From Arenicellales bacterium (lineage in GTDB: Bacteria > Pseudomonadota > Gammaproteobacteria > Arenicellales > JAJDZL01), in contig OZ243952.1 of the NCBI GenBank assembly GCA_965214615.1, positions 2,573,734 through 2,637,733 of the forward strand: 64,000 nt of DNA, written 5' to 3'. Numbering within the stretch: position 1 is the stretch's first letter; each line of letters begins with the position of its first letter. The translations under genes were made by a program, and so were the position numbers. Shown here piece after piece: positions 1 to 51,454 of this stretch. The notes beneath the pieces are model-generated. The model was not told where the DNA came from. It saw only the letters and a list, made by a program, of their open reading frames with translations, and did not search any database.

Positions 1-350
1 CATCATCGTCTTCAACTTCAACTGTCGCCGACGATACCGAGCCCACCGTATAGCCATTTCCCGAATCCACGGTCGCGACGACAGTACTATCCGGTTCATC
101 CACAGCATCAGCAACCGTGCTGACACGCAGGGTCCCCGTTCCCGCGTTTTGGCTGCCAGCAACCGGTATGATTACCTGTTTGGATCCGATTCCAGAAGCC
201 GCAGTGACGCTGCCGCTCTCGCCGACTATGACATCTACAGTGAGGTTTGACGCCGGTGCAGGTGTTGCAGTCACTGTGAAACTCGCGTCCGTCCCCTCCG
301 TCGCAGGTGACGTGCCAGGGGCGATTGTGATATTCGGGTTCGCCGGATTG
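1..350 (-). repeat. Super-repeat SR17 (partial: A module only, continues beyond the window)
   Basis: This A module ends ...NGYTVGSVSSATVEVEDDD at 58..2. It is ~92% identical at nucleotide level to the A module of SR15 (1-150 vs 6331-6480). Confidence 0.7.
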
Positions 351-21300: not shown

Positions 21301-24300
21301 CAACCCTGAGCGTCGGTGGAATTATCGCGGCATCATTGACCGTGACATCGAAGCTGTTCCTAGCACCACTTGAATGCGGGTCAGCACCGCCATCGACATT
21401 GGTGCCAAGCGTGCTTGCATCGAACGCTGAATTCGAACCAAGTGAGATCTCGAATATCTCCTGATTCGCCGAGCCGCCTTCTGCAGTATTGTCAATCTGT
21501 GGCTCCAAAACCAGTGTCGCAGTCTCGGATCCAGCATTCGCAAAACGCACTACCGGCGATAAGGAGTTCTCGCCGGAAACAGTAACACCGGTGTTAAACC
21601 CCGTACCGGACTTCGCAACCAGCGACCATTCGGACGCGGTTACGCCCGTACCGCCGATCGTGAGCGGAACATCAATGATCTCATCTGCGATCAACGACCG
21701 GGACAGCGTTACTGTAAATTCAATCGTCTCGCCTTCGTCAATAGCCCCGGATCCTACGCGAGCAAGACTCACCACCGTGGGAGTGTCGTCTTTCATCTCG
21801 ACTTTCGCCGATGATAAAGTGCCCACTGTATAGCCGGTGCCTAAATCAACAGTCGCAACAATAGCACCTGCTTGACCAGGCAACTCGTCCAGCGAGTCGG
21901 CGACAGTGCCAACACTGAGTTGCGCGCTACCTGCGTTAAGACCAGACGCTGGAATGACTACCGACTTTGACCCGGTTTGGCCACTGGCCGCAGAGTTACC
22001 GACATCACTTACAGTAATATCCACCGTGAGGTTCGCTGTTGGCACCGGTGTCGCGGTGACCGTGAAAATCGCAGGCGATCCCTCCGCCACCGACGTGCCG
22101 GGAGCGATGGTGACATTCGGGTTCGCCGGATTGTCGTTGTCCAAAATTCGAATGAACCAGTAGGATTCAGCCGAAACAGTGCCGTCGGGCGGTGTCGTCG
22201 AATCAATTGCCGCTTCGGTAGAATTCAGATTGGCAAGGCGAAACACAATGACTTCAGTCGACTCAATTTCGCTGTCATCAACCGTTGTAAGCGAGTATGT
22301 CTTGAACTTCTCGCCCGGGGCGAACGTCACAGTGGTTGATGACTGAGGCGCATCAGTAGAATAATCCGAGGAATCGCTCGCGTCTTTGGCACCCTGTGGA
22401 CAGGGGATGCCTACAGAGCACCGGCTTGTTGAAAGATCTATGGAAATCGACTGACTTGCCGCCCGGCTCAATGTAAGATCAATGGTGCCGTTCCCACCCT
22501 CGGTGACAGTTGGGACCTCGACCTTGAGCGTCGGTGTCGCCGACCCTATGATGTCATTGACCGCGATGTCGAAACTGTTCATTGCGTCAGTCGTATGCGG
22601 ATCAGCGCCACCACCGACATTGGTACCCAGCGTGCCTGCGTCGAACGCTGCATTCGAACCAAGTGCAATCTCGTAGGTCTCCAGATTCGTTCCACCGCCC
22701 TCGGCAGTGTTATCAATCCTTGCTCCCAATACCAGCGTCGCAATTTCGGCTGCTCCATTTTCAAATCGCACCACAGGTGAGGAAGTGCCGGTGCCAAGTA
22801 GGCTGACACCTGTATTTAGGCCAGTGCCGGGTTTGCGACCTAGAAACCAGTCGCCCGCGGTTACGCCTGTACCACCGATGTTCAGCGGCACATCGATAAT
22901 CTCGGCGGCAATCAGTGCACGGGACAGCGTTACCGTAAACTCAGCCGTCTGCCCCTCGTCAATGGCACCCGAGTCTATTCGCGCAAGACTCACCACTGTC
23001 GGGTCGTTGTCAGTTATAGCGCCGGTGCCGGCAAGTGTGACACCACCGCCGGCAAATGTTGCATTGACTGCATTTGAAAGCCGGACTTTCATCGTCTTGG
23101 TGATTGACTCATCAAGGGCATTGCTGTCAAGAACCATTACATCAATATGTTGTGTTGTCTCACCTGAAGCAAAAGTCAAGGTTCCGGAAGTCAGCGCTGT
23201 GTAGTCGACTCCTTGAGTAGCTGTACCACCGGTAATCTCAGCATAATCGGCAGTCACCTCCTTGCCACTCGCCGGCGTGAGCGTTGCCGTGAACCGCAAA
23301 GTGTTTCCTTCACCGGCACTCGGTGAATCAATGGACAGCGCCGGTTCATCATCGTTGTCTGTTATTGAGAAGGCCACGGTGCCTGAACCGGTCGCGCCGC
23401 CGCCGAGATTCGTACCTGAATTCGCATCCAGAGTGCCCATACCCAGTGTCACCGACTCGTCTGTCTCGTCGAACCTGTCGTTGACAGCTCGTATTGAAAG
23501 CGTTGCACGCCGCGAAGCTCCAACCGGGCCGGTAAATACAATGGTCGGCGGCAGGTTTACAATGTCAGCACTCGAAAGATTCTTGTAGCTGACTCCCTTA
23601 GGGATGAAGTCATCTGCCCCACGTGTGTAATTGGTACTTAATATGTAATCTGTGAGAAATTCGGCAGCCCCTCCAAATATGAGTGGCACCTCCAGCGTTT
23701 CATCGCCTTCGAGCGCACGGCCAAGCTCGACTGTGAAATTCGCTCTTCCGCCACTTGTGCCTCCCATCTCGGTAATTGCGGTTCCAACCGGAGACGTAAG
23801 CGTTACCTCGGTCGCATCGCTGTCGGCAAGCTCAATACTGTGGCTGGTCGTGGTGCCAAGCTTGGCGTGAGCATCAGCGCCAAGATCCACGGAAAACGCT
23901 TCCGCCGGTTCATCATCATTGTCATCAGTGAGTGTGACAATGATGTTCTTGCTCACATCATCCTTACCGAAAATAAACTCCGTCTTCGCAATTGCAACAA
24001 AATCACCGCCGCCTATCGCAGTACCATCAACGGTGGTATAGCTGAGCGTCGCATCCACCAATGTAGTGCCGGTCCTGGCAACGCTAAGCGTCACCGTACC
24101 GTCATCTTCGGCCGCAGTGGTAGAGGATGTCGAAAATTCAAAACTCGGCACATCATCCTCATCGGTAATGGTGCCAACCGCGGAACTCGCGCTTGAGTTC
24201 AAGCTGAAGGGGTTCGCGCTGGCAAGTGTCAAGGTAAGATAATGATCACTCTCGTAGGTTTGGTCATCGCTCGTCGCAATGCTCACGGTGCCGCTTTTTT

Positions 24301-27300
24301 CACCTTCGGCAATAGTGAGCGTCGCACTGCTCGCCGCCGTATAGTCTGCTGCGCCGGTTGCAACCTGATGGGCCGCGTCTGCCGACTGTCCGCGTCCGTC
24401 CGATGTCGAATAGACGATGTCCACACCCCCGCTTGGCGCGGCTTGCGGAAGAGTCACGGTGAATTCCACCGCATCGCCTTCCGGCGCGCTCGCGTCGGTC
24501 ACGCCCACCCCCGCATCGTCGTCTAAAATGGGCACGGACACAGACCTACCCGGGCTGATGCCACCCGAAAGCCCTGACGAGGATGGTCCGAATTGCACTC
24601 CCCCTGTCCCAAACCTGACAAGCAGCGTGCGCTCTGTCTGGTCATTGTTATTGACAGCGGTGAATGTGAACTTTGCCTGTTTCGCTCCTGCGCCTGTGAA
24701 ATTCACTACCGGATTGTCGGCGAAAAATGGAAATTCATCCGTATAAAGAGTCACACCCGTACCGCCTTCGAATACGTAAGTGTAGTGGGTTGCGTGTGTC
24801 GCGCCCGTAAACACGACCGGTGCTCTCACACTTTCTCCAGCGACCAGTGGTCTTCCAAGCGTTACGGTGACATCCACCGTACCGCCGTCTTCAGCAATGC
24901 CCCCTGAACCTGAACGCGCAAGTGTCACGGTTGTGGCATCGTTGTCTTGAACTTCAACCGTCGCCGAAGGGGGTTTGCCCACCGTATAGCCGCTTCCTGA
25001 GTCTACCGTCGCGACGATAGCGCCATCGAGTTCATCAACTTTGTCATCATCCGTACTGACAGTCAGCGTCGCTGTGCCCGCGTTTTGGCTGGTTGCAGAC
25101 GGTATGGTCACCTGTTTGGAACCGATACCGCCAGCGGCAGTAAAACTACCCGCCTCGCTGACCGCGACATCTACAGTGAGATTTGCCGTCGGTGCCGGCG
25201 TTGCTGTCACTTGGAAACTCGCGTCCGTCCCCTCGGTCACCGGCGATGTGCCAGAAGAAATGGCAATGTTGGGATTCGCCGGGTTGTCATTGTCCAGGAT
25301 AGCAGCATGCCAATGAGGATAATCCACTGAATCATCAGGCAGTGTACTCGGATCGATCTCAATTTCGTTCGCATTAAAATCACCGAATAGCAAAAGGTAA
25401 AAGATCTCAGTCGATTCGACTGAACTGTCATCGGTCGTCGTATAGGGGATTGACTTTTTCGTCTCACCGGGGGCAAACCCGACTAGAAGTGGCGGATACC
25501 TTGCTTGCACGGAAAAGTCAACGTCAAGCGATGCAGGTTTCCTACCCGGTGGACAAGGAGAGGTATAACTTGTACCGCATTCATCAATTCCAAAATTAAA
25601 CACTAGTCTCTTATCCGCCGGTCGACTCAAAGTCAGTTCAATAGCGCCGCTTTCACCCTCGGTGACGGTTGGGATATCAATCCTAAGTGTCGGCTTGACC
25701 GACCCTGTGATGTCGTTCACTACGACTTCGAAACTGTTCATCGCAGCACTTGCGTGCGGATCGGCACCGCCGAGAACGTTAGTGCCAAGCGTATTGGCAT
25801 CGAAATCTGCATTCGACCCCAGTGCGATCTCAAAGGTCTCCTGATTCGCTCCGCCACCCTCTGCGGTATTGTCAATCTTAGCCCCTATCAACAATGTCGC
25901 AATTTGCGCTCCCGCACCTTCAAAACGTAGAACCGGCGTCATAGTGCCTGTGTTGGAAAGACTGACACCGGTATTAATCGCCATTCCGGATTTCGTTACC
26001 AGGGACCAGTCTGCCGTTGTCACACCTGTGCCGCCGATTTTCAGTGGCACATCGATAATCTCACCCGCAATCAACGTCCGGGCCAGCGTTACCGTGAATT
26101 CAAATGCCTTGCCCTCATCAATGGCCCCTGAGCCTGTTCGCGCAAGACTCACCACTGTCGGGTCGTTGTCAGCAATGGTTCCTGTGCCATCGAGCGTATT
26201 GCCGCCGCCCATAAGACTTGCATTGACTGCATTTGAAAGCTGAACTTTCATCGTCTTGCCGATTGACTCGTCAATGGTATTGCTGTCAAGAACCGCTACA
26301 TCAATATGCTGTGTCGTCTGCCCTGGAGTAAAAGTCAAAGTTCCGGCTGTCAACGCAGTGTAGTCCACTGCTTGAGTTGCTGTACCACCAGCAATCTCAG
26401 CATAATCGACAGTAACTTCCTTGCCACTCATCGGCGTGAGCGTTACCGTGAACCGCAAGGTGCCGCCCTCGGCAGCACTCGGGGCATCGATGGACAGTAC
26501 CGGCGAACCACTCCAGTCGTTGATTGTAAGGCCTACAGTGCCTGAACCGGTCGCACCGCCGCCGAGATTTGTACCGGATTTCTCGTCCAAAGTGCCTAAC
26601 TCAACTGTCAGTGACTCATCGTTTTCATCGATATCATCAAATCGGATATTGATAACAATCGAAGCGCTGCGCACCGCGTTGTCCTCACCTGAAAAAACAA
26701 TGGTTGGCGGATTGTCCGTAAGGTTTGTGCTCCCAAGATTCATAAAGCGAACACCCGGGATTTTTGAACCGAATGCCGAAACCCAATAATCCGCGCCAAA
26801 CGTCGCAGCGCCTCCAAAAACAAGCGGTACAGCCAATGTCTCATCGCCTGTGAGCGCACGGTTAAGTTCTATGGTTACAGCATAGTTTCGATCGGTTTCC
26901 CCCGTGTTGATGCCATCAAATCTCGATGAGAGCGTCACCTCGGTCGCATCGTTGTCGGTAATCTCGATGCTGTGACTGACTGTGCTGCCAAGCTGACTGT
27001 GGGCATCTGCACTGAGCACCGCGCCAAACGCCTGAACCGGTTCATCTGCCGTATCATCGACAAGGCTTACTGTGATATCTTTGCTCACATCGTCCTTGCC
27101 AAATACGAGTTTCGCATCTTTGATTGCAATAAAATCGCTGCCGCCTGTTGCAGTATTGTCGACCGTGGTAAAGTTAAGCGTCGAATCTAGCAGTGTGGTA
27201 CCGGTCTTCTCAACGGTCAGCGTCAGCGTCCCATCACCTTCGCTCGCAGTGGTAGAGGCTGTCGAAAATTCAAAACTTGGCACATCATCTTCATCGGTAA

Positions 27301-30300
27301 TGGTGCCAATCGCAGAACTCGCACTTGGATCAATGCTGAAGTGATTGGTGCTGTCGAGCGTCAACTTAAAATAATGGTCACTCTCGTAGGCTTGGTCATC
27401 CGTCGTCGCAATACTCACGGTGCCGCTTCGCTGGCCTTGGGCGATGGCGAGTGTTGCCCCGCTTGCCGCCGTATAGTCTGAACTTGTCGCAACCTGATAG
27501 TCCGCATCTGTCGACTGCGCGCGCCCATCTGAAGTCGAGTAGACGATGTCCACACCGCCGCTTGGCGCTGCCTGCGGAAGCGTCACAGTGAATTCCACCG
27601 CATTACCCTCTGCAGCGCTGGCGGCCGCCAGGCTGATTCCGGCATCATCATCGACAATCGGTATCGCTATCGAACCGGCAGCGTTGATACCGCCAGAAAG
27701 TCCGGTTGAAGATGGTGCTCGGATACCTGTCCCGTAGGCAATGTTCAATACGCGGGAAGTCTGGTCGTTATTGTCAACCGCAGTGAATCTCACTGTCGCG
27801 GTTTTCGCGCCGGCACCTGAGAAAATCACCGCCAAATTCTGGCTACTGTGCGGGAGCTTCGTGTCATGAGCCACACCCGAACCACCATCTGTGAGCACAT
27901 AGGTGTAATGTCTCCGCACCGTTGCACCCGTCACTGAAAGAGGAACCGTCACACTTTCACCGTCGACCAATTCTCTGCCAAGCGTCACGGTTACATCCAC
28001 CGTACCTCCGTCCTCAGCAACCCCACCTGAGCCTGAACGAGCGAGCGTCACGGTTGTCGCATCGTCATCCAAAACATCAACCGTCGCCGAGGATGATGTT
28101 CCCGGCGTATATCCGGAACCGGAGTCCAGGGTTGCAAGGATAGCGCCATTGCGTTCATCGACTGTGTCATCTATCGTGCTGACGGTCAGTGTCGCGGTTC
28201 CCTCGTTCTGGCTGCCTGCAGCCGGGATAGTCACCTGTTTCGAACCGACATCATTGCTGTCAGCAATATTGCCAGTCTCGCTGACGGAAATATCTAAAGT
28301 GAGATCTGTCGCCGGCGCAGGTGCCGCTGTCACTGTGAAACCCGCGGCCGTCCCTTCCGTCACAGGGGACGTGCCAGGGGCAATAGTGATGTTTGGATTC
28401 GCCGGGTTGTCATTGTCCAAAATACGGATGAACCAGTAAGCATTTACATCGGCGGAACCGCCACTAAATGCATAAAAGCCGGCAGGCGGTGTTTTTGAAT
28501 CTATTGTGGCTTCAGTAGGATGGAGATCAAGCATAGAAATATGAAAAATCTCAGTTGACTCAACCGTGCTGTCATCGCTCGTTGTGAACGCGAACGTCTT
28601 GCTCGTTTCACCCGGGTCAAACGTATATAGGGTTGTGGTGCGTGGAAAAGATGACGAATTGTAGTCCCCAGGCCGCCTAGCTGTACCGACATCTGGCGGG
28701 CAGATTTCCTCTGAAAATCTATCGCAGTCAATCGAGCCAACATAGACTCTGAAACTGATACTTCGGCTTGATGGTCGGCTTAAAATGAGCTTGATTGCAC
28801 CACTGTCACCCTCAATAACAGTTGGAGCCTCAACCTTGAGCGTCGGAACAGGCACAACGGCATCATTGACCTGTAAGTCGAAGCTGTGCATTGCAGCATC
28901 TGCGTTGCGTCTGGCCCCGCCGCCGACATTCGTACGGCGAGAATTCGCGTCGAATGCCATGTCTGAACCAAGGTTAAGCGTGAATGTTTCACCACCCGCG
29001 TCGCCGCCTTCTGCAACATTGTCGATTCTCGTCTGAAGTAAAAGGGTTGCAGTTCTGGCACCCGAACCTGCAAAACGTACCACCCGGGTTCTTTCACTAA
29101 AATGAACTTCAGGCAAATTGACTCCCGAGTTAATACTCGAACCAGACTTTCTTGAAACAGACAAATCGCGCCACCATCCACTACCGCCGCCATTGATGCG
29201 CAACGGCACATCAATAATCTCACCTGCGACCAACTCTCGAGACAGCGTCACTGTAAACTCAACCGCCTCGCCTTCGTCGATAGCGCCCGACCCCACCCGT
29301 GCGAGACTCACCACCGTCGGTTCATCGTCGGTGATCTCGGCGATCGCAGAAGTCGAACTGCCCGTTTTGTAGCCGGAGCCGGAATTCACAGTCGCAACGA
29401 TGGCGGTGCCTTTGGGGTTGTCCATCTCGTCGTTCGCCGTGCCGACAGTAAAAGAGGCTGTGCCGGCGCTGTTTCCCGATGCCGGAATGGTCACCTGCCT
29501 GGCTCCGGTTTGGCCGCTTGCAGCACCGCCGCCAATATCGCTCACCGTGACATTTACAGTGATATTGGCACTTGGCGTCGGTGTCGCTGTCACCGTGAAC
29601 CTTGCACCTGTTCCCTCGGCAGGAGCAGCACCGGCAGCGATCGCGATGCTCGGGTTCGCCGGGTTGTCGTTGTCGTGAATGCGAACAAACCAATAAGCTT
29701 CAGATACCGTGGTTCCATCAGCTGGCGTACCCGCATCGAAGACAAGGTCCTTAGTTGAATTAAGCAAGTCCAGGACAAACAGGAAAGCCTCAGTTGACTC
29801 ATTGCTGTTGTCGTCAGTCGTCGCAAAGGAAATGGTCTTGACTGTCTCCCCGGGTGTAAAAGTTATTGACCCTGATGAAAAAGACAAGTCACTTGCTGTG
29901 GACGCCGCGTTCGTGCCCTGGGGACACGGAATGCTCGTTGTGCACTGACTTGCAGAGTAGTTGACAACGATTGACTGATTTACTGTATGACTCAGCGCAA
30001 TGGCTATCGTGCCGCTTTCGCCTTCGATAACGGCCGGAACATTAACTTTAAGCTTCGGTACAGCCGATGCTGCGGTGATGTCGTTGACCACAATGTCGAA
30101 ACTGCTCATTGCAGCAACCGGATTCGGGACAGCACCGCCATCCACATTGGTCCCAAGCGCACCTGCACTGAACGCTGCCTTTGTGCCGAGCGCAACATCA
30201 ATGGTTTCCAGATTCGTTCCGCCGCCCTCTGCAATGTTGTCAATCGGCGTCCCTAACACCAGTGTCGCAACTTTGGCGCGCGCACCGCTAAAACGCACGA

Positions 30301-36300: not shown

Positions 36301-36487
36301 CAACGTTCACTTTGAGGTTTGATGTCGGCACTGGTGTAGCAGTCACCGTGAAGGACGCTGAAGCCCCCTCTGATACCGATGCGGAATCGGCGGCAATGGT
36401 AACTGTCGACGAAGCCGACGCATTTGATGTATTTGCGAGTACTGCGAGAAGTACCGCCAATACCACAAATTGCAGGAATTTATGCAT
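1..36487 (-). CDS. Giant secreted Calx-beta-like tandem-repeat surface protein (putative Ca2+-dependent adhesin). At least 12,162 aa lie in the window and the 3' end lies beyond coordinate 1
   Basis: My own minus-strand translation starts at ATG 36487: MHKFLQFVVLAVLLAVLANTSNASASSTVTIAADSASVSEGASASFTVTATPVPTSNLKVNV... The same frame (first base of each codon at a coordinate = 1 mod 3) still reads ...NGYTVGSVSSATVEVEDDD at 58..2. Spot translations are all in this frame: 1441-1480 KVTVDYAEISGGTA, 1801-1850 DTVIPKGVSYKNLSSA, 5371-5461 LDATVSYITVDGTATGGSDFTLIKSTDLVFGK, 7081-7141 GGASGSGSLSFAITDNEIKK, 8571-8690 ATVEVQDDDATTVTLARSGSGAVAEDGGTADVTVTLGRQ. The ORF track lists no minus ORF in this frame anywhere in 1-36487, which fits a single unterminated ORF. 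The GTATxGxD[FY] motif and D-rich module ends (DDD, DNDN) are the Calx-beta signature. Confidence 0.9.
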   Translation of the reverse strand, partial: MHKFLQFVVLAVLLAVLANTSNASASSTVTIAADSASVSEGASASFTVTATPVPTSNLKVNVGEGSQGTNQSILRQVTIPASGNNAGSATFTIGTVQDDVDKPKGSSGTVVATLNSGTGYTVGTSSSATVEITDDDPTVVSLARVGSGAVTEGETAEFTVTLSRELVAGEIIDVPLRINGGGSNWSRDWSVSKKSGSSINSGVTLPEVSVFERTKVVRFRDSGARTATLLLQTNIDYVAEGGDAGGETFTLILGSDTAFDANSRLTNVGGGARRNTDAAMHSFELQVNDFVLPVPTLKVEAPTVVEGDSGTIKFTLSRPVSQSIDIRLFFVGAGCSQISSSVCPPGVDEATWSADYKSASFPVTTTSYTFAPGETSKTFAFTTTDDSTVESTEVFLIGLQGLHPSEATIDPKTPPYGFLSTSGGGSGDVEAYWYVRILDNDNPKNPNITIAPGTSSVTEGSPATFTLTATPTPADSFNVNMMVSGTGNGAPSAEIGSKQVLFPAAANTATFSVRTSDGVDDPTGTVGTIVATVDSGTGYTIAKSISASVEIEDGDPTVVSLARTGFGPIDEGEAVEFKVTLGRALKAGEIVHVPLEIGGAGVVPADWNLSKHSDAKLNKGVSLSRLLSSTPVVIFTGAGAKSATLILTAKRDYTAEGNGSNFETFALALGSSEAFGSNTLGTNVGGGANPHPNPAMHRFEVKVNDVAAVGVPTLKVEYPTFTEGDSGTLKFTLSHPPEEQLVGLVAVVDISGTTTASSNDYSFSLQDRTLVFNRGVTTKTVPFTITDDNVSEPTEVFVFELAGPFTIDSATPPDSFNTFIQPQRPLWNVYIQDNDNSANPIVTIASNDSAVAEGLPATFTVTATPAPTASFTVDLTASDALRGGTRSRQSSILAGSTTATFTVPTIDGTDYSTGATPDIVATLDAGAGYIVGTSSSASVAVNDEDPTVVSLNRVGSGAVDEGQSVEFTIDLSRALVGGEIIDVPLLIGGMGITTDDWGLSDKPGTGLNSGVRLSGINTSTPMVRLRGEGTKTATLVLGVPADNLAEGDGAGAETLEVSLGSNLAFDAQVLGTNVGGGADPHASAAMNSFEIKVNDTTATSSAPTLKVKVPAVTEGEKGVIELVLSHPVSDPVQFFVRSLVCSDALAPRCPEDTGKAKLGEDFSTDFSQSSISLTFAPGETYKSLLYTTSDDSDVELTEVFYFALNSLDPSKAAIDLSTLPDVSKGRNSAGADAYWYVRIVDNDSTANPNVTIAPGDSPVTEGTDATFIVTAVPAPAAGIDVNVAISEVITGAASKQIGSQSVSVPASTGHASTATLTVTTADTVDEPTGRIVASIKPGNRYRVGAVASATVEVEDDDSTTVMLAREGSAGISEDGGTVDVAVTLGRQLAAGESVTVPLVVTGATVGTHYTYALTDDSDSISLSALSPHNTQNPAVIFSGVGARGAILRFTGVDNSDQTARTLSVDYGTGVRAPFSSGLSGGLTTTGSVAVPIIDDENMISVTGAQAAEGNAVEFAVTLPQAAPSGGVGIDYSTSNGRGEQSDASHQVATTADYTSASSETLTIAQGQRSGTVSIATTDDQTYESDHYFTLTLDSTNHFSLNLSANTAIGTITDEQDLPRFGFSTPSTAANEGDGTVTLTVEKTGTTLLDASLSYATFDATATGGSDYTVIKSTDLVFGKDDTSKELTVTLRDDAADEMTEAFTVDLIATAGARLDTASSHSIEIADNDATRVRLSSAAESAIAEDGETTLIIDLNRALTGDEKLSVPLVVWGDASLGSDYTLSGVALSGVSYTNLDSTDLVNEPPTVSFSGAANASRRAVLTVKSIDDAVDETDLESVIVGLGAIDASLAMNLDGGVTGSGLVDFPIEDNDDLPVLSIDAPSTTEGNKLQFTVTLTPQSEKDVSVDYAEISGGTATSGVDYDELPAGTLIFPAGETTRNISITVLDDNSDESMDETVTVQLLSADNATLEGGGITLNSMGTIIDVNPTVVSLARTGSGAIDEGQKIEFTVTLVRELIASEIVDVPLDIGGAGVTTADWFLLGKAGASLNTGVSLSGTGTSTPVVRFSGARAKVATLVLGTPIDNIAEGGGTNLETIDVALGTKAAFSAGALGTNVDGGAVPNPVAAMSSFDIVVNDITAASAVPKLKVNVPAVIEGESGTIAIALSHTVNQSIVVNYSASQCTTSIPCPQGTNAASTASDLSFSSGSITFTPGETVKTISFATTDDNSNESTEAFLFVLDLLNSTKDLVFDAGTPADGTTVSEAYWFVRIHDNDNPANPSIAIAAGAAPAEGTGARFTVTATPTPSANITVNVTVSDIGGGAASGQTGARQVTIPASGNSAGTASFTVGTANDEMDNPKGTAIVATVNSGSGYKTGSSTSAIAEITDDEPTVVSLARVGSGAIDEGEAVEFTVTLSRELVAGEIIDVPLRINGGGSGWWRDLSVSRKSGSSINSGVNLPEVHFSERTRVVRFAGSGARTATLLLQTRIDNVAEGGDAGGETFTLNLGSDMAFDANSRRTNVGGGARRNADAAMHSFDLQVNDAVVPVPTLKVEAPTVIEGDSGAIKLILSRPSSRSISFRVYVGSIDCDRFSEEICPPDVGTARRPGDYNSSSFPRTTTLYTFDPGETSKTFAFTTSDDSTVESTEIFHISMLDLHPTEATIDSKTPPAGFYAFSGGSADVNAYWFIRILDNDNPANPNITIAPGTSPVTEGTAAGFTVTAAPAPATDLTLDISVSETGNIADSNDVGSKQVTIPAAGSQNEGTATLTVSTIDDTVDERNGAILATLDSGSGYTPGTSSSATVDVLDDDATTVTLARSGSGGVAEDGGTVDVTVTLGRELVDGESVTVPLSVTGATVRRHYTYVLTDGGSGVAHDTKLPHSSQNLAVIFSGAGAKTATVRFTAVDNNDQTSRVLNIAYGTGIRAPSSTGLSGGINAAGSIAIPIVDDDAGISLAAASAAEGNAVEFTVTLPQAAPSGGVDIVYSTSDGRAQSTDADYQVATSSDYTAASGATLAIAQGQRSGTVSIATTDDQAYESDHYFKLTLDSTNHFSIDPSASSAIGTITDEDDVPSFEFSTASTTASEGDGTLTLTVEKTGTTLLDSTLNFTTVDNTATGGSDFIAIKDAKLVFGKDDVSKDITVSLVDDTADEPVQAFGAVLSADAHSQLGSTVSHSIEITDNDATEVTLSSRFDGINTGETDRNYAVTIELNRALTGDETLAVPLVFGGAATFGADYWVSAFGSKIPGVRFMNLGSTNLTDNPPTIVFSGEDNAVRSASIVINIRFDDIDENDESLTVELGTLDEKSGTNLGGGATGSGTVGLTINDWSGSPVLSIDAPSAAEGGTLRFTVTLTPMSGKEVTVDYAEIAGGTATQAVDYTALTAGTLTFTPGQTTQHIDVAVLDSNTIDESIGKTMKVQLSNAVNASLMGGGNTLDGTGTIADNDPTVVSLARTGSGAIDEGKAFEFTVTLARTLIAGEIIDVPLKIGGTGVTTADWSLVTKSGMAINTGVSLSNTGTMTPVLRFEGAGAQIATLLIGAKIDNTAEGGGANQETFEIALGSNADFDANTLGTNVLGGADPHASAAMNSFEVVVNDITGSVKPTLRIDIPTVTEGESGAIELTLSRPADKRLVFNFGIDECGTSYTSPCPPGRKPASLDVDFSVQARYPPLLVGFAPGETKKSIPYTTTDDSSVESTEIFYLLLFGDFNANEIEIDPSTLPDDSVDYPHWHAAILDNDNPANPNIAISSGTSPVTEGTDASFQVTATPAPTANLTVDVAVSEAGSFTAAGGIGSKQVTIPSATSQNAGTATLTVSTDDDKVDELDGAIVATVDSGSGYTVGKPPSATVEVQDNDATTVTLARSGSGGIAEDGGTVDVTVTLGRPLVAGESVRAPVVFTGATHATHYTYVFEGGTGVTLYTDEFPFFADNPVVNFTGAGAKQAKFTFTAVNNNDQTERTLLVRFGTGGVQFGPSSSGLSGGISPGRSVSVPILDDDAGVGVTDASAPEGDAVEFTVTLPQAAPSGGVDIVYSTSDGRGQSADAAHQVATGAADYTAASSATLTIAEGEKSGTVSIATSDDQTYESDHYLTLTLASANPFSLNSSASSAVGTITDEDDVPSFEFSTSSTTAAEDDGTVTLSVARTGTTLVDATLSYTTVDGTAIGGGDFVAIAKTEFIFGKDDVSKNIIVTLTDDNDDEPAEAFSVDLGADAHAKLGTTTSHSIELADSDATEVTLTSPVGTAITEMGGTSGGRANFTVELGRALEGDETLEVPLIFGGAAEFLTDYILSTNYTRGADDFIPKGVSYKNLSSADIVNLPPTIVFTGPVGASRRATLSIRAVNDRFDETDESVTLGMGTLDANSGTNLGGGATGSGTVAFSITDNDDEPALSIDSPSAGEGNTLRFTATLTPASGKEVTADYAEITGGTATQGVDYTALTSGTLTFASGETTQHIDVMVLDSNALDESITKTMKVRLSNAVNATFAGGGVTLAGTGAITDNDPTVVSLARIDSGAIDEGQTAEFTVTLSRALIAAEIIDVPLNIGGTGVTAGDWFLGRKPGTGLNTGVSLLGTGTSSPVVRFENGAAEIATLVLGARIDNTAEGGGTNLETYEIALGSNAAFDAGTLGTNVGGGADPHTTDAMNSFDIAVNDIIGSATPTLKVEVPTVTEGGNGTIDLTLSRAASQSISIDLSTSRCSVGIPCPQGAKDASDSSDYSTDAPQSSTTVTFAPGEKFKTYSLTTVDDSEIESTEVIVFRLANLNSTEAAIDSTTPPDGTVSAESYWFIRILDNDNPANPNVTIAPGTSVAEGSPAIFTVTATPVPTANLTVDITVSDVGNSAASGQTGSKSVVIPASGLNAGSAQLSVGTVADSLDELPGQAGAIVATVDLGTGYTVGTLSSAKVEMKDDTPTVVSLARVGSGAIDEGETIEFTVTLSRSLIADEIIDVPLTIGGTGVTASEWSLVAKSGTGFNTGVTVSGENSLSPVVRFANAGSETATLVLEPQIDNTAEGGSANQEIFEISLGSNSAFDASTLGTNVDGGADPHSSGARNSFDVTVNDAAIIPPTLRVDVPVVTEGDQGTIDLTLSRASTKPVTINYIFWVCNLFDSPPCPTGTERAELDIDFVGVPSTFTLRFEPGQVKKSIPLTTIDDNAIESTEVFLFFMGMPNNLEATIDPSTPPDFSDIDFYWHVRILDNDNPANPNITITPDASPVTEGTNAAFTVTATPAPSVNTTVNLTVSETGNVAANSSTGSKQVQIPASGSLNAGTAKLTVSTVADTVDESTSTITARLHSGAGYTVSAASLAAVEVDDDDPTTITLTRTGSGGIAEDGGMADVTVSLGRALVAGESVTVPLTVTGASVTTHYSYILSEDDTGVYLETSGLHSSQDPAVRFSGADARTATLTFSAVDNNDQSARTIVINFGTGSRAPLFSRGSDGVSTHGSVSVPIVDDDAGISVTGARVPEGSAVEFTVTLPQAAPGGGVDIVYSTSDGRGESTDAAYQVATSSDYTAASEATLTIAQGQRSGTVSIATTDDQTYESDHFFTLTLDSTNHFSLNQSANSAIGTITDEGDVPSFEFSTSSSAVDEGDGTATLTVQKTGTTLVDATLSYTTVAATATSDIDFTAIKRADLVFGKDDSSKDITVSLSDDADDEPTETFTVDLIAGTHARLGSTSSRTIEITDNDATQVTILSAANKSFGESAPRQLATFSVELGRTLRDDETLAVPLAFGGDADFGIDYALSTEITEHSGSVIPKGVQFLNLTSTDHVNKPPTIVFTGVAGALRLASLALEPIEDTVEEDSESLTVSLGTLNASSGTDLDGGATGSGTVIFEITDDDYPTLSIDSPSVVEGADSGNASLRFAVTLTPASTRSVTVDYAEISGGTATQGVDYEALSAGTLTFAAGETIKYIDITVLDDSVDESIDETVAVRLSSAVNATLTGGGVTLDSTGTISDGNPTLVSLARTDSGAINEGETVGFTVTLARTLIFGDIIDVPLDIGGAGVTPADWGLSKKAGASLNTGVTLYGETTSTPVVRFEGVGAKTATLTLEAKHDDHAEGGGTNQETYTIALGANTAFDDSKLGTNVGGGADPNTAGELNSFDVTVNDRSALPLLKVEVPTVTEGDSGAIEFTLNRPMDKQIAPIVNVRVCGISTTAPCPAGTKPATPDVDFTMQPEPSQINARFPNEFHIKFAPGETKKSLSFTTTDDSAVEPTEVFDLWIDLFNSKGVAFDPSTPPDVTDVRDHWQARILDNDNPANPNITISPIASPVTEGADARFQVTATPAPTTNLTVGVTVGESGNVTAAGGIGSKQVTVPAAGRSNAGTATLIVSTVADAVDEPDGAILATVNSGSGYTVATATSSATIEVQDYNATTVMLARSGSGAVAEDGGTADVTVTLGRQLVAGESVTVPLAVTGATATTHYTYVLTDGSTGVTLNTQSPHNAQNPAVIFSSSGARTATLTFTAVDNSDQMARTLNIAYGTSARAPSSSGLSGGINATGSAAIPILNDDAGISVTDAGAQEGNAVEFTVTLPQAAPGGGVDIVYSTSDGRGESTDAAYQVATSSDYTAASSATLTIAQGQRSGTVSIATTGDQIYESDHYFTLTLNSTNHFSINQSAKSAIGTINDEDDVPSFEFSTSSAVAAEDDGTLTLTVEKTGTTLLYAQLSYKTVDGTATGDSDFTLIKSTDLIFLKDDTSKDVTVTVTDDADDELAESFTVDITADEHAKLGNLSSHSIEITDNDPIEVTLSSPVGATITELGGTSGGRTNFTVELSRVLTGDEALEIPLVFSGDAVFGRDYELTTDYNFASSGSSDSPVVFFKNLASDDPVNKPPTIIFTNLPLTSKLGILGLRAIDDSSDEELESVTIDLATLDANSGTNLDGGAAGSGTVTFSIVDNDDEPALSIDAPSVAEGTNGATSTLRYTVTLAPVGGKEVTVDYAGISGGTATQGVDYKPLTAGTLTFSAGETTQHIDITVFDDDIDETADETVAVQLSNPVNAKLTGGGATLDGTGTITDADPTIATLARTGSGAMDEGQTVEFTVTLSRTLLAGEIIDVPLEIGGTGVTAADWFVGENPAMGLNTGVSLPAANTSSSVVRFSGAGAQTATLLLGAKVDNTAEGGGANLETYEIALGSNAAFDANTLGTNVDGGADPNSTLSKNRFDIKVNDIKGLAVPKLKVDIPTVIEGDSGTIVLTLSRPAEKSIPFEVVAVKSLCTSASIPPCPTGTEAAQYDSDFTSNFSRIPVNLTFAPAEITKSLSFATTADNAAETTEIFEFLIGSLDSTEATIDSNTPADGFTIGSNPYWYVRIHDNDNPANPSITIAPGASPVTEETDASFTVTATPAPAANITVNLSVSDVENVAASGQTGSKQVVIPATGANAGTATLAIGTAADAVDESTGSISGAVTADLKSGTGYTVGTASSATVEIVDGDPTVVSLARVGTGTIKEGETVEFTVTAARELIAGEIIDVPLDIGGSGVTVSDWRLSAKSGSGLNTGVSLSAANTSIPLVRFEGVKAKTATLVLEARFDHLSEGGEAGAENFTIALGSDTAFGANTLGTNVGGGAKPNASASMNRFDVTVNDVASAVPTLSVKIPAIAEGETGTIELTLSEAATVPIGITVWASTIQGSNAASFQDFSGAFTSGVSLSFAPGQTSKTISFSVIDDNAIESTERFWFRIFDLESNEAVIDSTTPSDGTYNGIPHWHVDIHDNDNPANPNISIAAGKSPVSEGTAATFTVTATPTPNSNVTVDITVNDIGGGAVNGEAGARQVTIPASGNSAGTASFAVGTTTDEVDKPHGISIIANVDPGTGYTTGSVASATVEIFDDDPTVVSLARVGSGAIDEGESIEFTITLSRELVAGEIIDVPLRINGGGRLWWHDLSMSKKSGSSINLGVNLPAVAYDERNQVVRFKGSGARTATLLLQTSIDNVAEGGDAGAEIFTLNLGSDTEFDSDSRRTDVSGGARRNADAALHSFDLQVNDAVAPVPTLKVEAPTVVEGESSAVKLTLSQPASRSIEIGLFIGRLNCTGPDSNDCPPDVGTASFEDFQLPSYPPRPLIFAPGETSKTFAFTTTDDSEVEPTEVFIISLRLLFPGEATLDSNTPPYGFYPTSGGTYGTEAYWLARILDNDNPNNPNITIAPRTSPVTEGTGAGFTVTAAPAPATDLTVNVSVSESGNVAASDGVGSRQVTVPAAGSQNEGTATLTISTIADTVDELNSAILATLDSGTGYTLGTSTSATVDVLDDDVTTVTLARTGSGGIFEDGGTVDVTVTLGRELVDGESVTVPLAVTGATVATHYTYVLTDGSTGVTLNTQNPHSMQIPAVIFSDAGAKAATLRFTAVDNNDQTARTLNIAYGTGARAPSSIGLSGGISATGSLTIPIVDDEAGIGVTDASASEGNAVEFTVLLPQDAPGGGVDIVYSTSDGRGESTDAVYQSASGSDYTTASGATLTIAQGQRSGTVSIATTNDQTYESDHYFTLTLDSTNHFSLNQSANSAIGTITDEGDVPSFEFSTSSSAVDEGDGTATLTVQKTGTTLLDATLSYITVDGTATGGSGNDFTLIRSADLVFGKDDTSKDITVTVADDDDDEPAESFTVDISEGEHAKLGNLSSQSIEITDNDATKVTLSSRFNGSSPREAERSFAVTIELNRALTGDETLAVPLVFGGDATFGLDYTLSLSESSYTGVSFMNLDSADHKNKPPTVKFSGVANASQRAVLLLWIQNDLLIESTESITVGLGTLDGNSGTNLDGGAIGSGEIGFTIRDNDALPVLSIDDPSVTEDGNMQFKVTLAGTAAEAVTVDFSETAGDTATQGQDYEALSAGTLTFAVGETTKFIDITVVDDAIDDPTEETVAIQLSNLVNATFKGGGDTLEATGTITDNDPTLVSLARTGSGTIDEGQTVEFTVKLVRALVAGEIIDVPLEIGGTGVTTADWSVSKKTGLSFNTGITIFGTDTSSPTVRFKGAGAWTATLVLETLVDNTAEGSGADSETFKVSLGSNSAFNADALESNVAGGAVPHTSAARNSFNVTVNDITKRMLKVEVPTITEGESGTIKITLSPAASEQITLNFGLYPCDALNTPPCPPGTKSAHLGNDYGLQGSGNTVFDAVFAPGETEKSFSIATVLDNLVETTEVFNVRLRNNPDDKGVSIDPSTPPDDSGRLLHWNAFILDVDNPANPNITIAPGMSSVTEGANTSFTVTATPAPETNLTVDVKVSETGNFAKARIRSKQVIIPVAGGHNAGTATLIISTVDDFVDEPDGAIHATVDSGSGYTVGTASSATVEVQDDDATTVTLARSGSGAVAEDGGTADVTVTLGRQLVAGESVTVPLAVTGATATTHYTYVLTDGSTGVTLNTQSPHSAQKPAVIFSSSGAKTATLRFTAVDNSDRTARTLNIAYGTGARVPSSTGLSGGISATGSVAISILDNDAGVSVTDASAPEGDAVEFTVTLPQAAPIGGVDIVYSTSNGRGQSTDAAYQVATSADYTAASSATLTIAQGQRSGTVSIATTDDQIYESDHYFTLTLDRTSRFSLNQRANSATGTITDDDDAPSFEFSTTSTSAAEDDGTVTLTIKKIGATLLDATVSYITVDGSATSGSDFTLVKSTDLVFGKRDASKNITVTLNDDADDEPTESFNVDIAAGEHARLGSTTSHAIEIADNDAIEVTLSSSVGAAIAEDGSAIFTVQLGRALAGDETLEVPLNFSGDATFGVDYKLDRDYLVGGGNIKDPNGVSYRNLSSNDPVKRPPTIVFTAVAQASRDTTLAIRSIDDSVKNEGHESVIVGLGTLDANSGTNLGGGASGSGSLSFAITDNEIKKRTLSVVVPTVTEGESGTIELTLTPAASVAKTIEFILYACDAIHRPCPPGTNSAHQINDFTLQGGMNKYDAVFASGETKKSISFTTTEDNEVELTEVFNFALKDHPDSQQITIDPSTPSDGSGRLFHWSGFILDNDNPANPNITIAPGTSPVTEGTNAIFTVTAAPAPASNLIVDVIVGESGNVTAASGIGSKQVVIPAAGQNAGTGTLSVGTVADAVDEPDGTVVATVDSGNGYTVGTASSAIVEVEDDDATTVTLARSGSGAVAEAGGTADVTVTLGRHLVAGESVTVPLAVTGATATTHYTYVLTDGSTGITLDTQSPHGAQNPAVIFSSSGAKTATLRFTAVDNADQTARTLNIALGTGTRAPSWTGLSGGISTTGSVAISILDNDAGVGVTDASAPEGNAVEFTVTLPQAAPSGGVDIVYSTSDGRAQSQDPVYQSATSSDYTTASGATLTIAQGEQSGTVSIATTDDQIYESDHYFTLTLNSTNHFSLNQNANSATGTITDDDDAPSFEFSTSSTNAAEDDGTLTLTVEKTGATPLDATVSYITVDGTATGGSDFTLIKSTDLVFGKNDTSKDITVAITDDADDEPTESFTVDITAGEHAKLGSMASHAIEITDNDPVGVTLSSPGVTITEDGSTTGGRTTFTVELSHALTGDETIEVPLDIGGDAVFGEDYSLTVDYAFKGFTSLPKGVRYKNLASTDLVNQPPTIVFSGVAGASKLAILGLKAIDDSVDEAQESVTIGLGTLIVNSDVSLAGGAAGSGMVSFAIEDDDGRVLSIDAPSVGEGVSGTTSTLRFTVELSAASSRQVTVDYAETSGGTATQGVDYRALTAGTLTFAAGETTKYIDITVLNDGQHELMDETVKVQLSSPVNASLNGGGVTVDGTGTIIHDPVEVSLARSGSGAIDEGQTVELTVTLSRVLVADEIVDVPLDIGGTGVTTADWNLSKKAGATLNSGVSLSSTNTSTPVIRFKNAGAKIATLILEANVDNTAEGAGTTLETFKVALGSNTAFGNPAFGTNVKRGAAPHASASMNSFEVVVNDITGSVKRTLRVDVPAVVIEGGSGTVEMTLSRSFDELTIFGFDGSSCGSYTPCPPGTKPASYGADYSIISEYDQSYQFVMFAAGETKQSFTFTTTDDSLVESTEYIAILQYPEHSNKIEIHPSTPPDYAITPDDAERPWRFWHVAILDNDNPANPYITISSGTSPVTEGTDASFQVTATPAPTANLTVDVAVSEVGNFTPAGGIRSKQVIIPSATSQNAGTATLTVSTDGDKVDELDGAIVATVESGSGYTVVEPPSATVEVQDNDATTVTLARSGSGGIAEDGGTADVTVTLGRQLADGESVTVPLAVTGATATTHYTYGLTDGSTGVTLNTQSPHSAQHPALIFSSSGGRTATLTFTAVDNSDQMARTLNIAYGTSARAPSSSGLSGGINATGSVAIPILDDDAGISVTAASAPEGNAVEFTVTLPGAAPSGGVDIVYSTSDGRSHPTDAAYQVATSADYTAASNATLTIAQGQRSGTVSIATTNDQTYESDHYLTLTLDSTTHFSLNSSARSAIGTITDADDVPSFEFSTSSTTVAEDDGTVTLSVAKTGTTLVDATLSYTTVDGTAIGGSDFTATTMTSFVFGKDDVSKNIIVTLTDDNDDELVEAFSVDLGADAHAKLGTTTSHSIELVDSDATEVTLSSPVGTAITERGGTNRGRTNFTVELGRVLKGDEMLEVPLIFGGAAEFLTDYRLSTDYTFDTVIPKGVSYKNLSSADIAKQPPTIVFTSVAGALGRATLSIQAVNDRIDEVDESVTLGLGTLDADSGTNLGGGAAGSGTVAFSITDDDNEPVLSIDDPSVVEGTNGTASTLRFTVTLAPRSSKKVTVDYAEISGGTATQGVDYSALTAGTLTFGAGETTQYIDITVLNDGINEVVDETVKVRLSSPVNATLDGGSVTLGATGTITDADPVVVSLSRTGSGAIDEGQSIEFKVTLARELTAGEIVDVPLDIGGTGVTTADWVVGEKHGATINTGVNLSGSSTSTPVVRFEDAAAQSAILVLWAQVDNTAEGNGANRETFEIALGSTTAFGEPTLGTNVMSGAAPHASASMNSFDVTVNDITGSALRKLKVEVPTVTEGERGTIEITLTPAASTEKELEFNLYACDFLNTPPCPPGTKSAHQVNDYRLQNGQTRFDAVFAPGETKKSVSFTATEDNEVESTEVFNFSLRSDPGEKQITIDPSTPPDDSARLLHWSAFILDNDNPANPNITIAPGTSPATEGTDASFTVTATPAPASNLTVDVIVGESGSVTAASGIGSKQVIIPVAGSQNAGTGTLRVSTVADAVDEPDSTVVATVDSGNGYTVGSVSSATVEVEDDD
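351..3505 (-). repeat. Super-repeat SR16 (long: A-H)
   Basis: Junction motifs at ~3505 and ~350. C-module marker ORF 2643..2834. The H copy reads LYACDFLNTPPCPPGT (606-652). Confidence 0.7.
3506..6675 (-). repeat. Super-repeat SR15 (long: A-H)
   Basis: Approximate module limits: A 6352-6675, B 5925-6350, C 5560-5925, D 5225-5560, E 4765-5225, F 4400-4765, G 3950-4400, H 3506-3950. C-module marker ORF 5817..6113. The H copy reads DGSSCGSYTPCPPGTK (3781-3830). Confidence 0.7.
6676..9000 (-). repeat. Super-repeat SR14 (intermediate: A-B-C-D-E-H; modules F and G missing in frame)
   Basis: The unit is only ~2.33 kb. The E module end runs straight into an H module: ...GGASGSGSLSFAITDNEIKKRTLSVVVPTVTEGESG (7141 downward). 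Antisense ORF 6933..7331 uniquely fuses the H-type and E-type shadow motifs. C-module marker ORF 8145..8336. Confidence 0.75.
9001..12120 (-). repeat. Super-repeat SR13 (long: A-H)
   Basis: Junction motifs at ~12120 and ~9000. C-module marker ORF 11262..11453. Confidence 0.7.
12121..13372 (-). repeat. Super-repeat SR12 (short: A-G-H), subfamily Sa
   Basis: The G variant is VPLRINGGGRLWWHDLSMS (12861-12915) and the H copy has GRLNCTGPDSNDCPPD (12395-12445). Off-frame marker ORF 12574..12930. Confidence 0.75.
13373..14570 (-). repeat. Super-repeat SR11 (short: A-G-H)
   Basis: Junction motifs at ~14570 and ~13372. The H copy (ELTLSEAATVPIGITVWASTIQGSNAASFQDF, 13600-13700) lacks the Cys pair. 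Confidence 0.7.
14571..17745 (-). repeat. Super-repeat SR10 (long: A-H)
   Basis: Junction motifs at ~17745 and ~14570. C-module marker ORF 16884..17075. Confidence 0.7.
17746..20912 (-). repeat. Super-repeat SR9 (long: A-H)
   Basis: Junction motifs at ~20912 and ~17745. A divergent C-module marker ORF lies at 20097..20351. Confidence 0.7.
20913..22128 (-). repeat. Super-repeat SR8 (short: A-G-H)
   Basis: Junction motifs at ~22128 and ~20912. No C-module marker ORF lies inside it. Confidence 0.7.
22129..25280 (-). repeat. Super-repeat SR7 (long: A-H)
   Basis: Junction motifs at ~25280 and ~22128. C-module marker ORF 24417..24746. The H copy reads TSRCSVGIPCPQGAKD (22381-22430). Confidence 0.7.
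25281..28402 (-). repeat. Super-repeat SR6 (long: A-H)
   Basis: Junction motifs at ~28402 and ~25280. C-module marker ORF 27546..27737. Confidence 0.7.
28403..29660 (-). repeat. Super-repeat SR5 (short: A-G-H), subfamily Sa
   Basis: The G variant is VPLRINGGGSGWWRDL (29161-29210) and the H copy has VYVGSIDCDRFSEEICPPDV (28690-28745). Off-frame marker ORF 28780..29223. Confidence 0.75.
29661..32752 (-). repeat. Super-repeat SR4 (long: A-B-C-D-E-F-G-H)
   Basis: Junction motifs at ~32752 and ~29660. The C module is marked by antisense ORF family member 31902..32093 (MPTPPLGAACGSVT...). Confidence 0.7.
32753..33978 (-). repeat. Super-repeat SR3 (short: A-G-H)
   Basis: Junction motifs at ~33978 and ~32752. 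The H copy reads FFVRSLVCSDALAPRCPEDTG (33028-33090). Confidence 0.7.
33979..35160 (-). repeat. Super-repeat SR2 (short: A-G-H)
   Basis: Bounded by H->A junction motifs at ~35160 and ~33978. Its H copy (KFTLSHPPEEQLVGLVAVVDISGTTTASSNDYS, 34200-34300) lacks the Cys pair. Confidence 0.7.
35161..36412 (-). repeat. Super-repeat SR1 (short: A-G-H), subfamily Sa
   Basis: It directly follows the signal peptide. The G module has the variant VPLRINGGGSNWSRDW (35921-35970) and the H module has CSQISSSVCPPG (~35450-35490). Off-frame marker ORF 35539..35982. It ends at the H->A junction (..LDNDNPKNPN) at ~35160. Boundaries are +/-15 nt. Confidence 0.75.
36413..36487 (-). other. Sec-type signal peptide of the giant protein (about 23-25 aa)
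   Basis: MHK (positive n-region), FLQFVVLAVLLAVLA (hydrophobic core), NTSNA|SA (small-x-small cleavage motif). There is no lipobox cysteine. Confidence 0.6.
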
Positions 36488-36505
36488 GCCCCAATTTGCG
36501 GGGGA

Positions 36506-36515
36506 GGGGGGGGGG
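36506..36515. repeat. Homopolymeric G10 tract (C10 on the coding strand) in the leader of the giant gene, preceded by a G5 run at 36500-36504
   Basis: Read directly: 36500-36516 = gggggaggggggggggt. It lies 19-28 nt upstream of ATG 36487 and downstream of an in-frame ATG at 36544. That upstream ATG is itself preceded by an in-frame TGA at 36545-36547. Confidence 0.9.
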
Positions 36516-38297: not shown

Positions 38298-38373
<76 letters not shown>

Positions 38374-40954: not shown

Positions 40955-41092
40955 TGCGCAGCAGCCCGACACAGTCAAATTGGACAAATTTTATACCAAA
41001 CAACGTCAGCCAGTGACTTGTCAAGCCAACTCGAAGATGCGTACCTGATCGCCCGTCCTCGCGCAGCCACAATCGAAAACCGGAGCCCAAAC

Positions 41093-42772: not shown

Positions 42773-42793
42773 GCATGAATCGGGGCGGATCCT

Positions 42794-50543: not shown

Positions 50544-50616
50544 ACTGATTCGTCATGCGCTAATTCTTCTTGCGGCGGCTGCATTCAATGCCCATGCCGA
50601 GCAGCCGCCGCAGGGG

Positions 50617-51366: not shown

Positions 51367-51371
51367 TTCCG

Positions 51372-51390: not shown

Positions 51391-51454
51391 GATTCATGAG
51401 TGCGCCATCTCTTGTGCTCCGAGCGAAAGCCGAACTGCGCCCTGCCGTGCAGGC

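Follow-up and report, generated by a model that had tools for sequence, protein, structure and literature searches.

Strings of protein modules that are rigidified by Ca2+ are known from cadherins, from NCX CBD12, and from RTX adhesins. Bacterial proteins of at least 10,000 amino acids (aa) are rare yet documented, with 36,805 aa in a Chlorobium episymbiont and 85,804 aa in a member of the Omnitrophota, and surface proteins form the second largest class among the bacterial "huge proteins." BapP of Pseudoalteromonas tunicata is an experimentally supported Ca2+-dependent outer membrane adhesin, and Calx-beta and cadherin-like repeats occur both in this protein and in LapA (PMC12153261). Calx-beta proteins have also been reported as enriched "eukaryotic-like" proteins in sponge symbionts (PMC11706023). 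The present analysis concerns a stretch of 64,000 nucleotides from an Arenicellales bacterium (GenBank assembly GCA_965214615.1, contig OZ243952.1, positions 2,573,734 to 2,637,733), referred to below as the window, in which a single giant gene on the minus strand encodes a long array of β-sandwich modules behind a Sec-type signal peptide. An earlier note on this DNA, made from its letters and a list of open reading frames (ORFs), had drawn attention to this gene and to the rarity of proteins of its size in bacteria.

The giant open reading frame and its authenticity

The minus-strand frame that opens with the ATG at 36487 runs to coordinate 2 (2..36487, minus strand), where it is 3' truncated by the window edge. 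Its chance origin is excluded by the absence of any stop in 12,162 codons, against 285 to 758 stops in each of the remaining five frames; in random sequence, stop codons are expected at about 4 to 5% per codon. The earlier note had described an unterminated frame of at least 12,162 aa and more than 1.2 MDa, acidic and rich in Thr, Ser, Gly, Asp, and Val, and translation bears this description out. The visible protein has a mass of 1.243 MDa, an isoelectric point of 4.1, and a composition of 13% T, 11% A, 10% S, 10% G, 9% V, and 8% D, with 0.23% Cys. The closest in-frame stop 5' of the start lies at 36547. An alternative start at ATG 36544 would add 19 residues, but ATG 36487 is the likelier start because a textbook signal peptide begins there and the 19 extra residues are poorly conserved between strains.

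The gene covers more than half of the 64-kb window, and its visible part makes up 1.1% of the 3,244,837-bp (3.24-Mb) chromosome, the whole gene probably accounting for about 1.3%. Spending at least 1.1% of a chromosome on one gene implies a heavy investment by the cell. The ORF list over positions 1 to 36400 nevertheless shows 139 ORFs of 60 to 240 aa (close to the about 150 given earlier) and lacks the giant one, which is missing, as had been suspected, because ORFs that run off the source go unlisted.

The giant ORF is a real, intact gene under purifying selection and not an assembly artifact. Its repeats are 66 to 86% identical overall at the DNA level: the longest exact direct repeat spans 156 nucleotides (nt), the best long self-match reaches 86% over 751 nt, and segmental duplicates of 6 to 7 kb are 72 to 74% identical. 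Collapse or expansion of the array by an assembler, a concern raised before, is ruled out because these internal repeats are old and diverged. The ratio of nonsynonymous to synonymous substitution rates (dN/dS) between paralogous segments is 0.26 to 0.54, the differences being mostly synonymous, which shows that purifying selection has acted on the frame ever since the duplications.

A second copy of the gene (P0121) is present on a 143-kb metagenome contig from the same species (ENA ERZ25070917, ctg123249_42x_l; locus L081). This contig is readable to the window-equivalent position 14,293, and the comparison spans window positions 37144 to 14293. Over these 22.9 kb the two copies are co-linear, with 94.9% identity. 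The upstream gene order is also that of the window (panC, adh, a hexapeptide transferase, an S49 peptidase, glnS, gshB, gltX, tRNA-Ala, and a helix-turn-helix [HTH] gene), and the flanking genes are 99.2% identical. The ENA copy had been called as two genes, of 4,071 and 10,453 aa, in line with the statement that automated pipelines fragment such genes. Between window-equivalent positions 24202..24599 (minus strand; L081 21907-22306), insertions and deletions of −5, −2, +9, and +1 nt within 400 nt break the frame of this copy and then restore it, and the next 10,453 codons are open; the window is intact there. The patch is either a sequencing error or a real lesion.

This interruption could be cited for a nonworking gene, either a shorter repeat gene that was misassembled or a pseudogene in decay whose frame has so far stayed open. 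An atypical G+C content at third codon positions (GC3), which is 0.53 in the giant gene versus 0.61 to 0.73 in its neighbors, could be cited as well. Such an explanation is scarcely credible, since 36.5 kb without a stop is incompatible with decay, purifying selection is seen between strains as well as between paralogous segments, the ENA copy regains its frame, and two assemblies agree on an array whose repeats are too diverged to have been collapsed or expanded.

Between the two strains, the giant gene shows a synonymous divergence (dS) of 0.06 to 0.10 and a dN/dS of 0.38 to 0.54, compared with 0.01 to 0.03 and 0 to 0.25 for the neighbor genes. The divergence is mosaic (window 14293-36487 versus L081 10001-32216), with 1.5-kb blocks whose dS ranges from 0.013, as in the flanks, to 0.26. 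This pattern suggests that strains have recombined or that repeats have undergone gene conversion, as would befit an exposed surface molecule; evolution that is faster and more mosaic than that of the neighbors is expected where a molecule meets a host, a surface, or phages. The gene is an independently confirmed case of a protein above 12,000 aa being overlooked or broken up by standard ORF lists and gene callers.

Signal peptide and module array

The N terminus carries a Sec-type signal peptide (aa 1 to 25; 36413..36487, minus strand), judged by eye and by hydropathy, which can be written as MHKFLQFVVLAVLLAVLANTSNASA with the cut site before SS. A positive n-region, MHK, is followed by a 15-residue hydrophobic core (FLQFVVLAVLLAVLA; mean Kyte-Doolittle value of 2.9) and by NTSNASA, with A-S-A at positions −3/−1. 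This core is the sole strongly hydrophobic stretch in 12,162 aa, and the signal peptide is conserved in the ENA orthologue. These features agree with the single gene with an N-terminal Sec-type signal that had been proposed.

From aa 22 to 12,162 (2..36424, minus strand), the protein consists of exactly 92 β-sandwich modules of 107 to 154 aa, separated by gaps of at most 24 aa. The modules were defined by an iterated, self-built hidden Markov model (HMM), and all-against-all clustering with per-type consensus sequences distinguished ten types, A to J. Their order is ABC ABD ABC AEFGHIBC ABC AEFGHIBJ AEFGHIBC ABJ AEFGHIBJ AEFGHIBC ABC ABC AEFGHIBJ AEFGHJ AEFGHIBJ AEFGHIBJ A, which comprises 7 short 3-module units, 9 long units (eight with 8 modules and one with 6), and a trailing A at the window edge. 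A short unit, A-B-C (aa 2274 to 2692; 28412..29668, minus strand), was used for an AlphaFold2 model. A long unit, A-E-F-G-H-I-B-J (aa 2693 to 3733; 25289..28411, minus strand), was delimited by module typing, and its E-F-G-H-I part was modeled. Nested duplication gave rise to the 3-module and 8-module super-repeats, which then diverged under purifying selection.

All ten type consensus sequences have an acidic cluster in the second half and an acidic D/N-x-D end, the motifs being D-D-x-x-D-E-like clusters and D-x-D module ends, and 58 of the 91 module junctions contain at least two Asp or Glu in ten residues. The 28 cysteines in 12,162 aa all fall within 14 C-x5-7-C pairs (6 to 8 residues apart), with none elsewhere and one pair per C- or J-type module. 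The first conserved pair, C335...C343 (35459..35485, minus strand), is recognized by the positions and spacings of the cysteines and by the C and J consensus sequences.

Calx-beta modules and a second clan

An HMM comparison with the Pfam Calx-beta family, as had been suggested for this protein, gives a clear match. Against a cutoff of 27 bits, two chunks of 5,000 aa reach 421 and 485 bits with PF03160. When the module types are scored one at a time, only G (71.6 bits), I (39.0 bits), D (32.1 bits), and F (31.6 bits) exceed the cutoff, whereas C, J, and H are subthreshold and A, B, and E have no Pfam match. The best canonical Calx-beta module is of type G (aa 3065 to 3183; 26939..27295, minus strand), which provides the 71.6-bit score by matching the family over its full length (1-119/119).

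Profile-profile comparison with hhalign places types A, C/D/J, F, G, and I in one clan, with links of 86 to 98% (A-I, 94%; C-I, 98%; G-I, 97%; F-I, 92%). A second clan unites types B, E, and H, with mutual links of 98 to 99% and a weak best tie to the first clan (B-F, 45%). About 92 Calx-beta-like modules had been predicted in the earlier note; the number is correct, but the profile links assign only 59 of them to the Calx-beta-like clan and the other 33 (B, E, and H) to a separate sister β-sandwich clan. No Pfam or PDB relative of the second clan is detectable by sequence or profile search, and a profile search of the PDB with type A retrieved nothing significant.

The AlphaFold2 model of A-B-C (mde3cc3134d14) is all-β and shows three sandwiches, with a mean predicted local distance difference test score of 81. 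Foldseek matches this model to integrin leg domains, NCX1/CALX CBD12 tandems, an archaeal S-layer protein, and a mastigoneme. In the E-F-G-H-I model, modules E, H, and I are confident, whereas F and G are poor despite passing the Pfam cutoff. This second model matches NCX1 CBD1 (3gin) with a template modeling (TM) score of 0.77, a root mean square deviation of 2.9 Å, and 31% identity, the Calx-beta domain of integrin β4 (3fq4) with TM scores of 0.78 to 0.81, and CALX CBD1 (3e9t) with a TM score of 0.82. The match to the Calx-beta fold holds for at least one module of the model, the output not naming which.

Relatives, the 3' end, and the probable route to the cell surface

The array runs to the window edge without reaching a stop, and the total length was rightly left open in the earlier note, since the 3' end is outside the window. 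In genome and metagenome contig collections, the exact 100-nt sequence of window positions 1 to 100 gave 0 matches, and a scan of the last 403 aa against JGI metagenomes gave no match. When its two gene calls are fused, the ENA copy has about 14,555 codons, which places about 2,400 aa beyond coordinate 1 in the window gene. By co-linearity with this same-species copy, the whole protein probably has about 14,500 aa. The remaining about 2,400 aa would fit E-F-G-H-I-B-J, one long unit, and about 430 aa, a fit that is suggestive only.

An exhaustive search retrieved 3,472 relatives, the largest among the matches listed having 7,836 aa, and 247 fetched sequences were examined in detail. The named relatives in the homologue listing all come from series of metagenome-assembled genomes (MAGs), and those that were traced are sponge associated (Candidatus Synechococcus spongiarum, SB06xx bins, and IRC4). 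A general homologue search listed matches of up to 2,275 aa and missed the near-identical 4,071-aa relative; giant proteins are systematically hard to retrieve by database search.

In 110 of the 247 relatives, the C terminus is formed by a shared, conserved domain of about 400 aa that nearly always extends to the final residue and that follows a W-[LM]-x-R-F-G-R junction. This domain matches the autotransporter barrel model TIGR01414 with 21 to 23 bits (cutoff of 16) and PF03797 in 5 of 11 sequences (best E value, 6.6e-9), most members being below the Pfam cutoff; a profile search of the PDB with it found nothing significant. Of the 132 relatives in which A-type and B-type modules occur together, 79 have the barrel. 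One relative of 7,620 aa (P0173) instead has an N-terminal inverse-autotransporter barrel (PF11924, 127.5 bits) and not a C-terminal classical barrel. By these domain matches, anchors of type Va as well as type Ve have been joined to the module family. No PF11924 barrel was found between the signal peptide and module A of the giant protein, and PEP-CTERM-like or LPXTG-like C-terminal motifs were found neither in the window protein nor in the relatives. The earlier note had named no route of export across the outer membrane; the relatives point to a C-terminal autotransporter barrel.

Because 110 of 247 relatives end in a barrel, cysteines occur only in C-x5-7-C pairs, and RTX repeats are absent from the visible part, we infer that the protein is a giant type Va autotransporter adhesin rather than a type I secreted RTX adhesin. 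The cysteine pattern fits an autotransporter because tight cysteine pairs are the only disulfides that autotransporter passengers are known to tolerate in secretion. An RTX-type giant adhesin such as LapA, MpIBP, or SiiE would be exported in one step by an ATP-binding cassette (ABC) transporter, a membrane fusion protein (MFP), and TolC, directed by a C-terminal signal beyond the window and retained by an N-terminal plug. The giant protein has a typical cleavable Sec signal, and its module A starts at residue 22, which leaves no space for an N-terminal retention module. There is no RTX nonapeptide motif in the 12,162 visible aa and no tandem RTX run in the 247 relatives, which terminate in autotransporter barrels, and the 27 kb upstream of the giant gene contain no ABC, MFP, or TolC genes. 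Type I secretion is therefore highly improbable here, even though giant Ca2+-binding β-sandwich extenders are the hallmark of the RTX adhesins, the C terminus of the giant protein lies outside the window, LapA has been reported with Calx-beta-like domains (PMC12153261), and types F and I have subthreshold matches to the Pfam LapA domain (23.9 and 16.3 bits; cutoff of 27).

A Sec-exported fiber or matrix protein without a barrel of its own is a stronger competitor, although still rather unlikely. Such a protein would be released or loosely attached, as an S-layer-like coat, a biofilm matrix, or a SwmB-like motility-surface protein, and would leave the cell by way of type II secretion or some other pathway. 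This reading accounts equally well for the signal peptide and the repeat array, and SwmB is among the single-repeat giant proteins listed by West-Roberts et al. An archaeal S-layer protein and a mastigoneme filament are among the fold matches, and 137 of the 247 relatives show no barrel. Many of these 137 look truncated, however: P0124 stops within the linker behind the junction motif, and both ends of P0187 lie inside the module array. A terminal barrel is moreover the commonest ending among relatives with the same module types, and the visible flank contains no type II secretion genes.

Proposed mechanism

We regard it as fairly probable that the protein combines Sec export, its own C-terminal type Va barrel, and extracellular folding into a Ca2+-stiffened adhesion fiber. 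The unfolded chain would cross the inner membrane via Sec and reach the cell surface through a C-terminal type Va barrel encoded beyond coordinate 1, and its modules would fold one by one outside the cell. Acidic clusters in the modules and at their junctions (D-D-x-x-D-E and x-D-x-D) would bind Ca2+, so that the chain becomes a stiff rod roughly 0.4 to 0.5 μm long (assuming about 4.5 nm per module), which could serve as a tether between the cell and a surface, a host matrix, or other cells. That the protein is an adhesin and that it is stabilized by Ca2+, as the earlier note had proposed, we infer from homology and from the acidic motifs.

Several observations weigh against this proposal. The barrel comes from relatives that are only 35 to 45% identical at the module level, whereas the C terminus of the window gene lies beyond coordinate 1, and more than half of the relatives examined have no barrel. 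The junction W-[LMV]-x-R-F-[GA]-R is absent from the 12,162 aa, as expected if the barrel lies further 3', but this also fits a protein with no barrel. The inverse-autotransporter barrel of P0173 shows that the mode of anchoring is not uniform in the family. In classical type Va autotransporters, the passenger is a β-helix and not a string of β-sandwiches, and at about 1.4 MDa the passenger here would have about double the length of the longest relative observed with a barrel (7,836 aa). Modules F and G were modeled poorly, and the B/E/H clan is without a detectable solved or Pfam relative.

We see an even chance that this protein, with about 14,500 aa and more than 100 β-sandwich modules, is the largest type Va autotransporter yet seen and belongs to a widespread, as yet undescribed family with an enrichment in the genomes of sponge microbiomes. 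One 12-stranded barrel, together with Bam, would in that case have to thread about 1.4 MDa, with the Ca2+-driven folding of modules outside the cell acting as a ratchet. The giant gene and its relatives point to a large uncharacterized family of autotransporter-anchored Calx-beta fibers, and confirmation of the barrel would make this family a natural test of the passenger length limit in type V secretion. The further idea that the array mimics aggregation factors of a sponge host, which are rich in Calx-beta domains, is improbable.

Genomic surroundings

The 27 kb upstream of the giant gene are occupied by housekeeping genes (gltX, gshB, glnS, an S49 peptidase, panC, dehydrogenases, citrate synthase, and others). 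A tRNA-Ala(GGC) gene (38298..38373, minus strand; identified by ARAGORN, with an Rfam tRNA score of 60.1 bits), also present in L081, forms the upstream boundary of a variable region. Between this gene and the giant gene lies an Xre-type HTH ORF of 104 aa (37910..38224, minus strand; Pfam HTH_3, 34.3 bits), which is an 83-aa gene call on the ENA contig. By gltX (57 to 63% identity), the nearest genomes are chromosome-level Arenicellales MAGs. Two of the corresponding loci, L001 and L002, share the upstream gene order with the window but have no giant gene after gltX, and no giant ORF was found downstream of gltX in the Arenicellales relatives examined. The genes that follow gltX differ even between L001 and L002, the closest relatives, and the interval of L001 equivalent to the giant gene site (11,400-20,640) carries type I restriction-modification genes. 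The site looks like a variable, island-prone, tRNA-adjacent hot spot for acquired DNA.

The 5' leader of the giant gene contains a C10-T-C5 tract (36500..36515, minus strand), 13 to 28 nt upstream of the start codon. The tract is strain variable, being 6 nt shorter and interrupted in L081 (CCCACCCCTCTCCC), and could modulate the expression of the gene. A clean change in poly-C length, which would have pointed to phase variation, was looked for and not found; the strains differ by a 6-nt insertion or deletion plus substitutions.

A YhgA-like putative transposase (52651-53637, minus strand; Pfam Transposase_31, 51 bits) lies among the housekeeping genes. The unannotated ORFs at 37075-37876 were considered as a broken YhgA/Rpn-like gene, which was rejected because they have no tblastn match to this intact copy. 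Within window positions 49074-52240, a 489-aa protein with multicopper-oxidase domains and a C-terminal cytochrome c adjoins an FGE-sulfatase-like gene and an SCO1/SenC copper chaperone, and these genes possibly form a copper-enzyme cluster. An ORF of 659 aa without a Pfam match (41021-43000, minus strand) is antisense to glnS (40763-42772, plus strand) and is almost certainly a shadow ORF, the second misleading listing of a long ORF in the window.

Comparison with known systems

The named Calx-beta proteins (NCX1/CALX CBD1-CBD2, integrin β4, ADGRV1/VLGR1, and the sponge aggregation factors) resemble the giant protein in their match to PF03160 and in their fold (TM scores of 0.77 to 0.82, with 20 to 31% identity). 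The tandem arrangement of CBD12 is likewise found in the giant protein, whose module consensus sequences have conserved acidic clusters. In its domain content, the giant protein groups with the Calx-beta "eukaryotic-like" proteins described as enriched in sponge symbionts (PMC11706023). These proteins are eukaryotic and have 1 to 35 domains, whereas the giant protein is bacterial and has at least 59 such modules, interleaved with 33 of another clan.

BapP, from a marine gammaproteobacterium, shares with the giant protein a Sec/SPI signal and tandem Calx-beta-matching β-sandwich repeats of 108 to 141 aa that fall into several repeat classes (PMC12153261). In contrast to the giant protein, BapP has an N-terminal β-propeller and 12 sandwiches; the giant protein has no propeller, at least 92 modules, and another super-repeat logic. 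LapA, MpIBP, and SiiE are, like the giant protein, acidic, of MDa scale, and built as strings of about 100 immunoglobulin-like modules, which in those adhesins are rigidified by Ca2+ and hold an adhesive tip far from the cell. The giant protein probably works in the same manner. These three adhesins lack a Sec signal, are exported by type I secretion, and have a C-terminal RTX region, whereas the giant protein has a Sec signal and no RTX motifs in its visible part.

The type Va autotransporters resemble the giant protein in their Sec signal and in having cysteines only in tight pairs, and their barrel (TIGR01414 and PF03797) is seen in its relatives. They differ in that the giant passenger is made of β-sandwich modules and would be far larger than is typical, and the barrel family of the relatives is divergent, with no PDB profile match. 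Among the papers listed in a literature search, none was found to describe autotransporters with Calx-beta passengers, and this family may be undescribed. The uncharacterized giant relatives P0122, P0125, P0128, P0139, P0150, and P0165 (6,300 to 7,800 aa) have a signal peptide and A modules alternating with B, E, or H modules, as in the giant protein, but they show simpler A-H or A-B alternations and are about half as long. The same-species copy, P0121, is co-linear from residue 1, has identical flanking genes, and is, among the relatives compared, the sole other holder of the 8-module A-E-F-G-H-I-B-C/J unit. The giant gene is a new, exceptionally large member of an already known type of protein and not a categorically new system.

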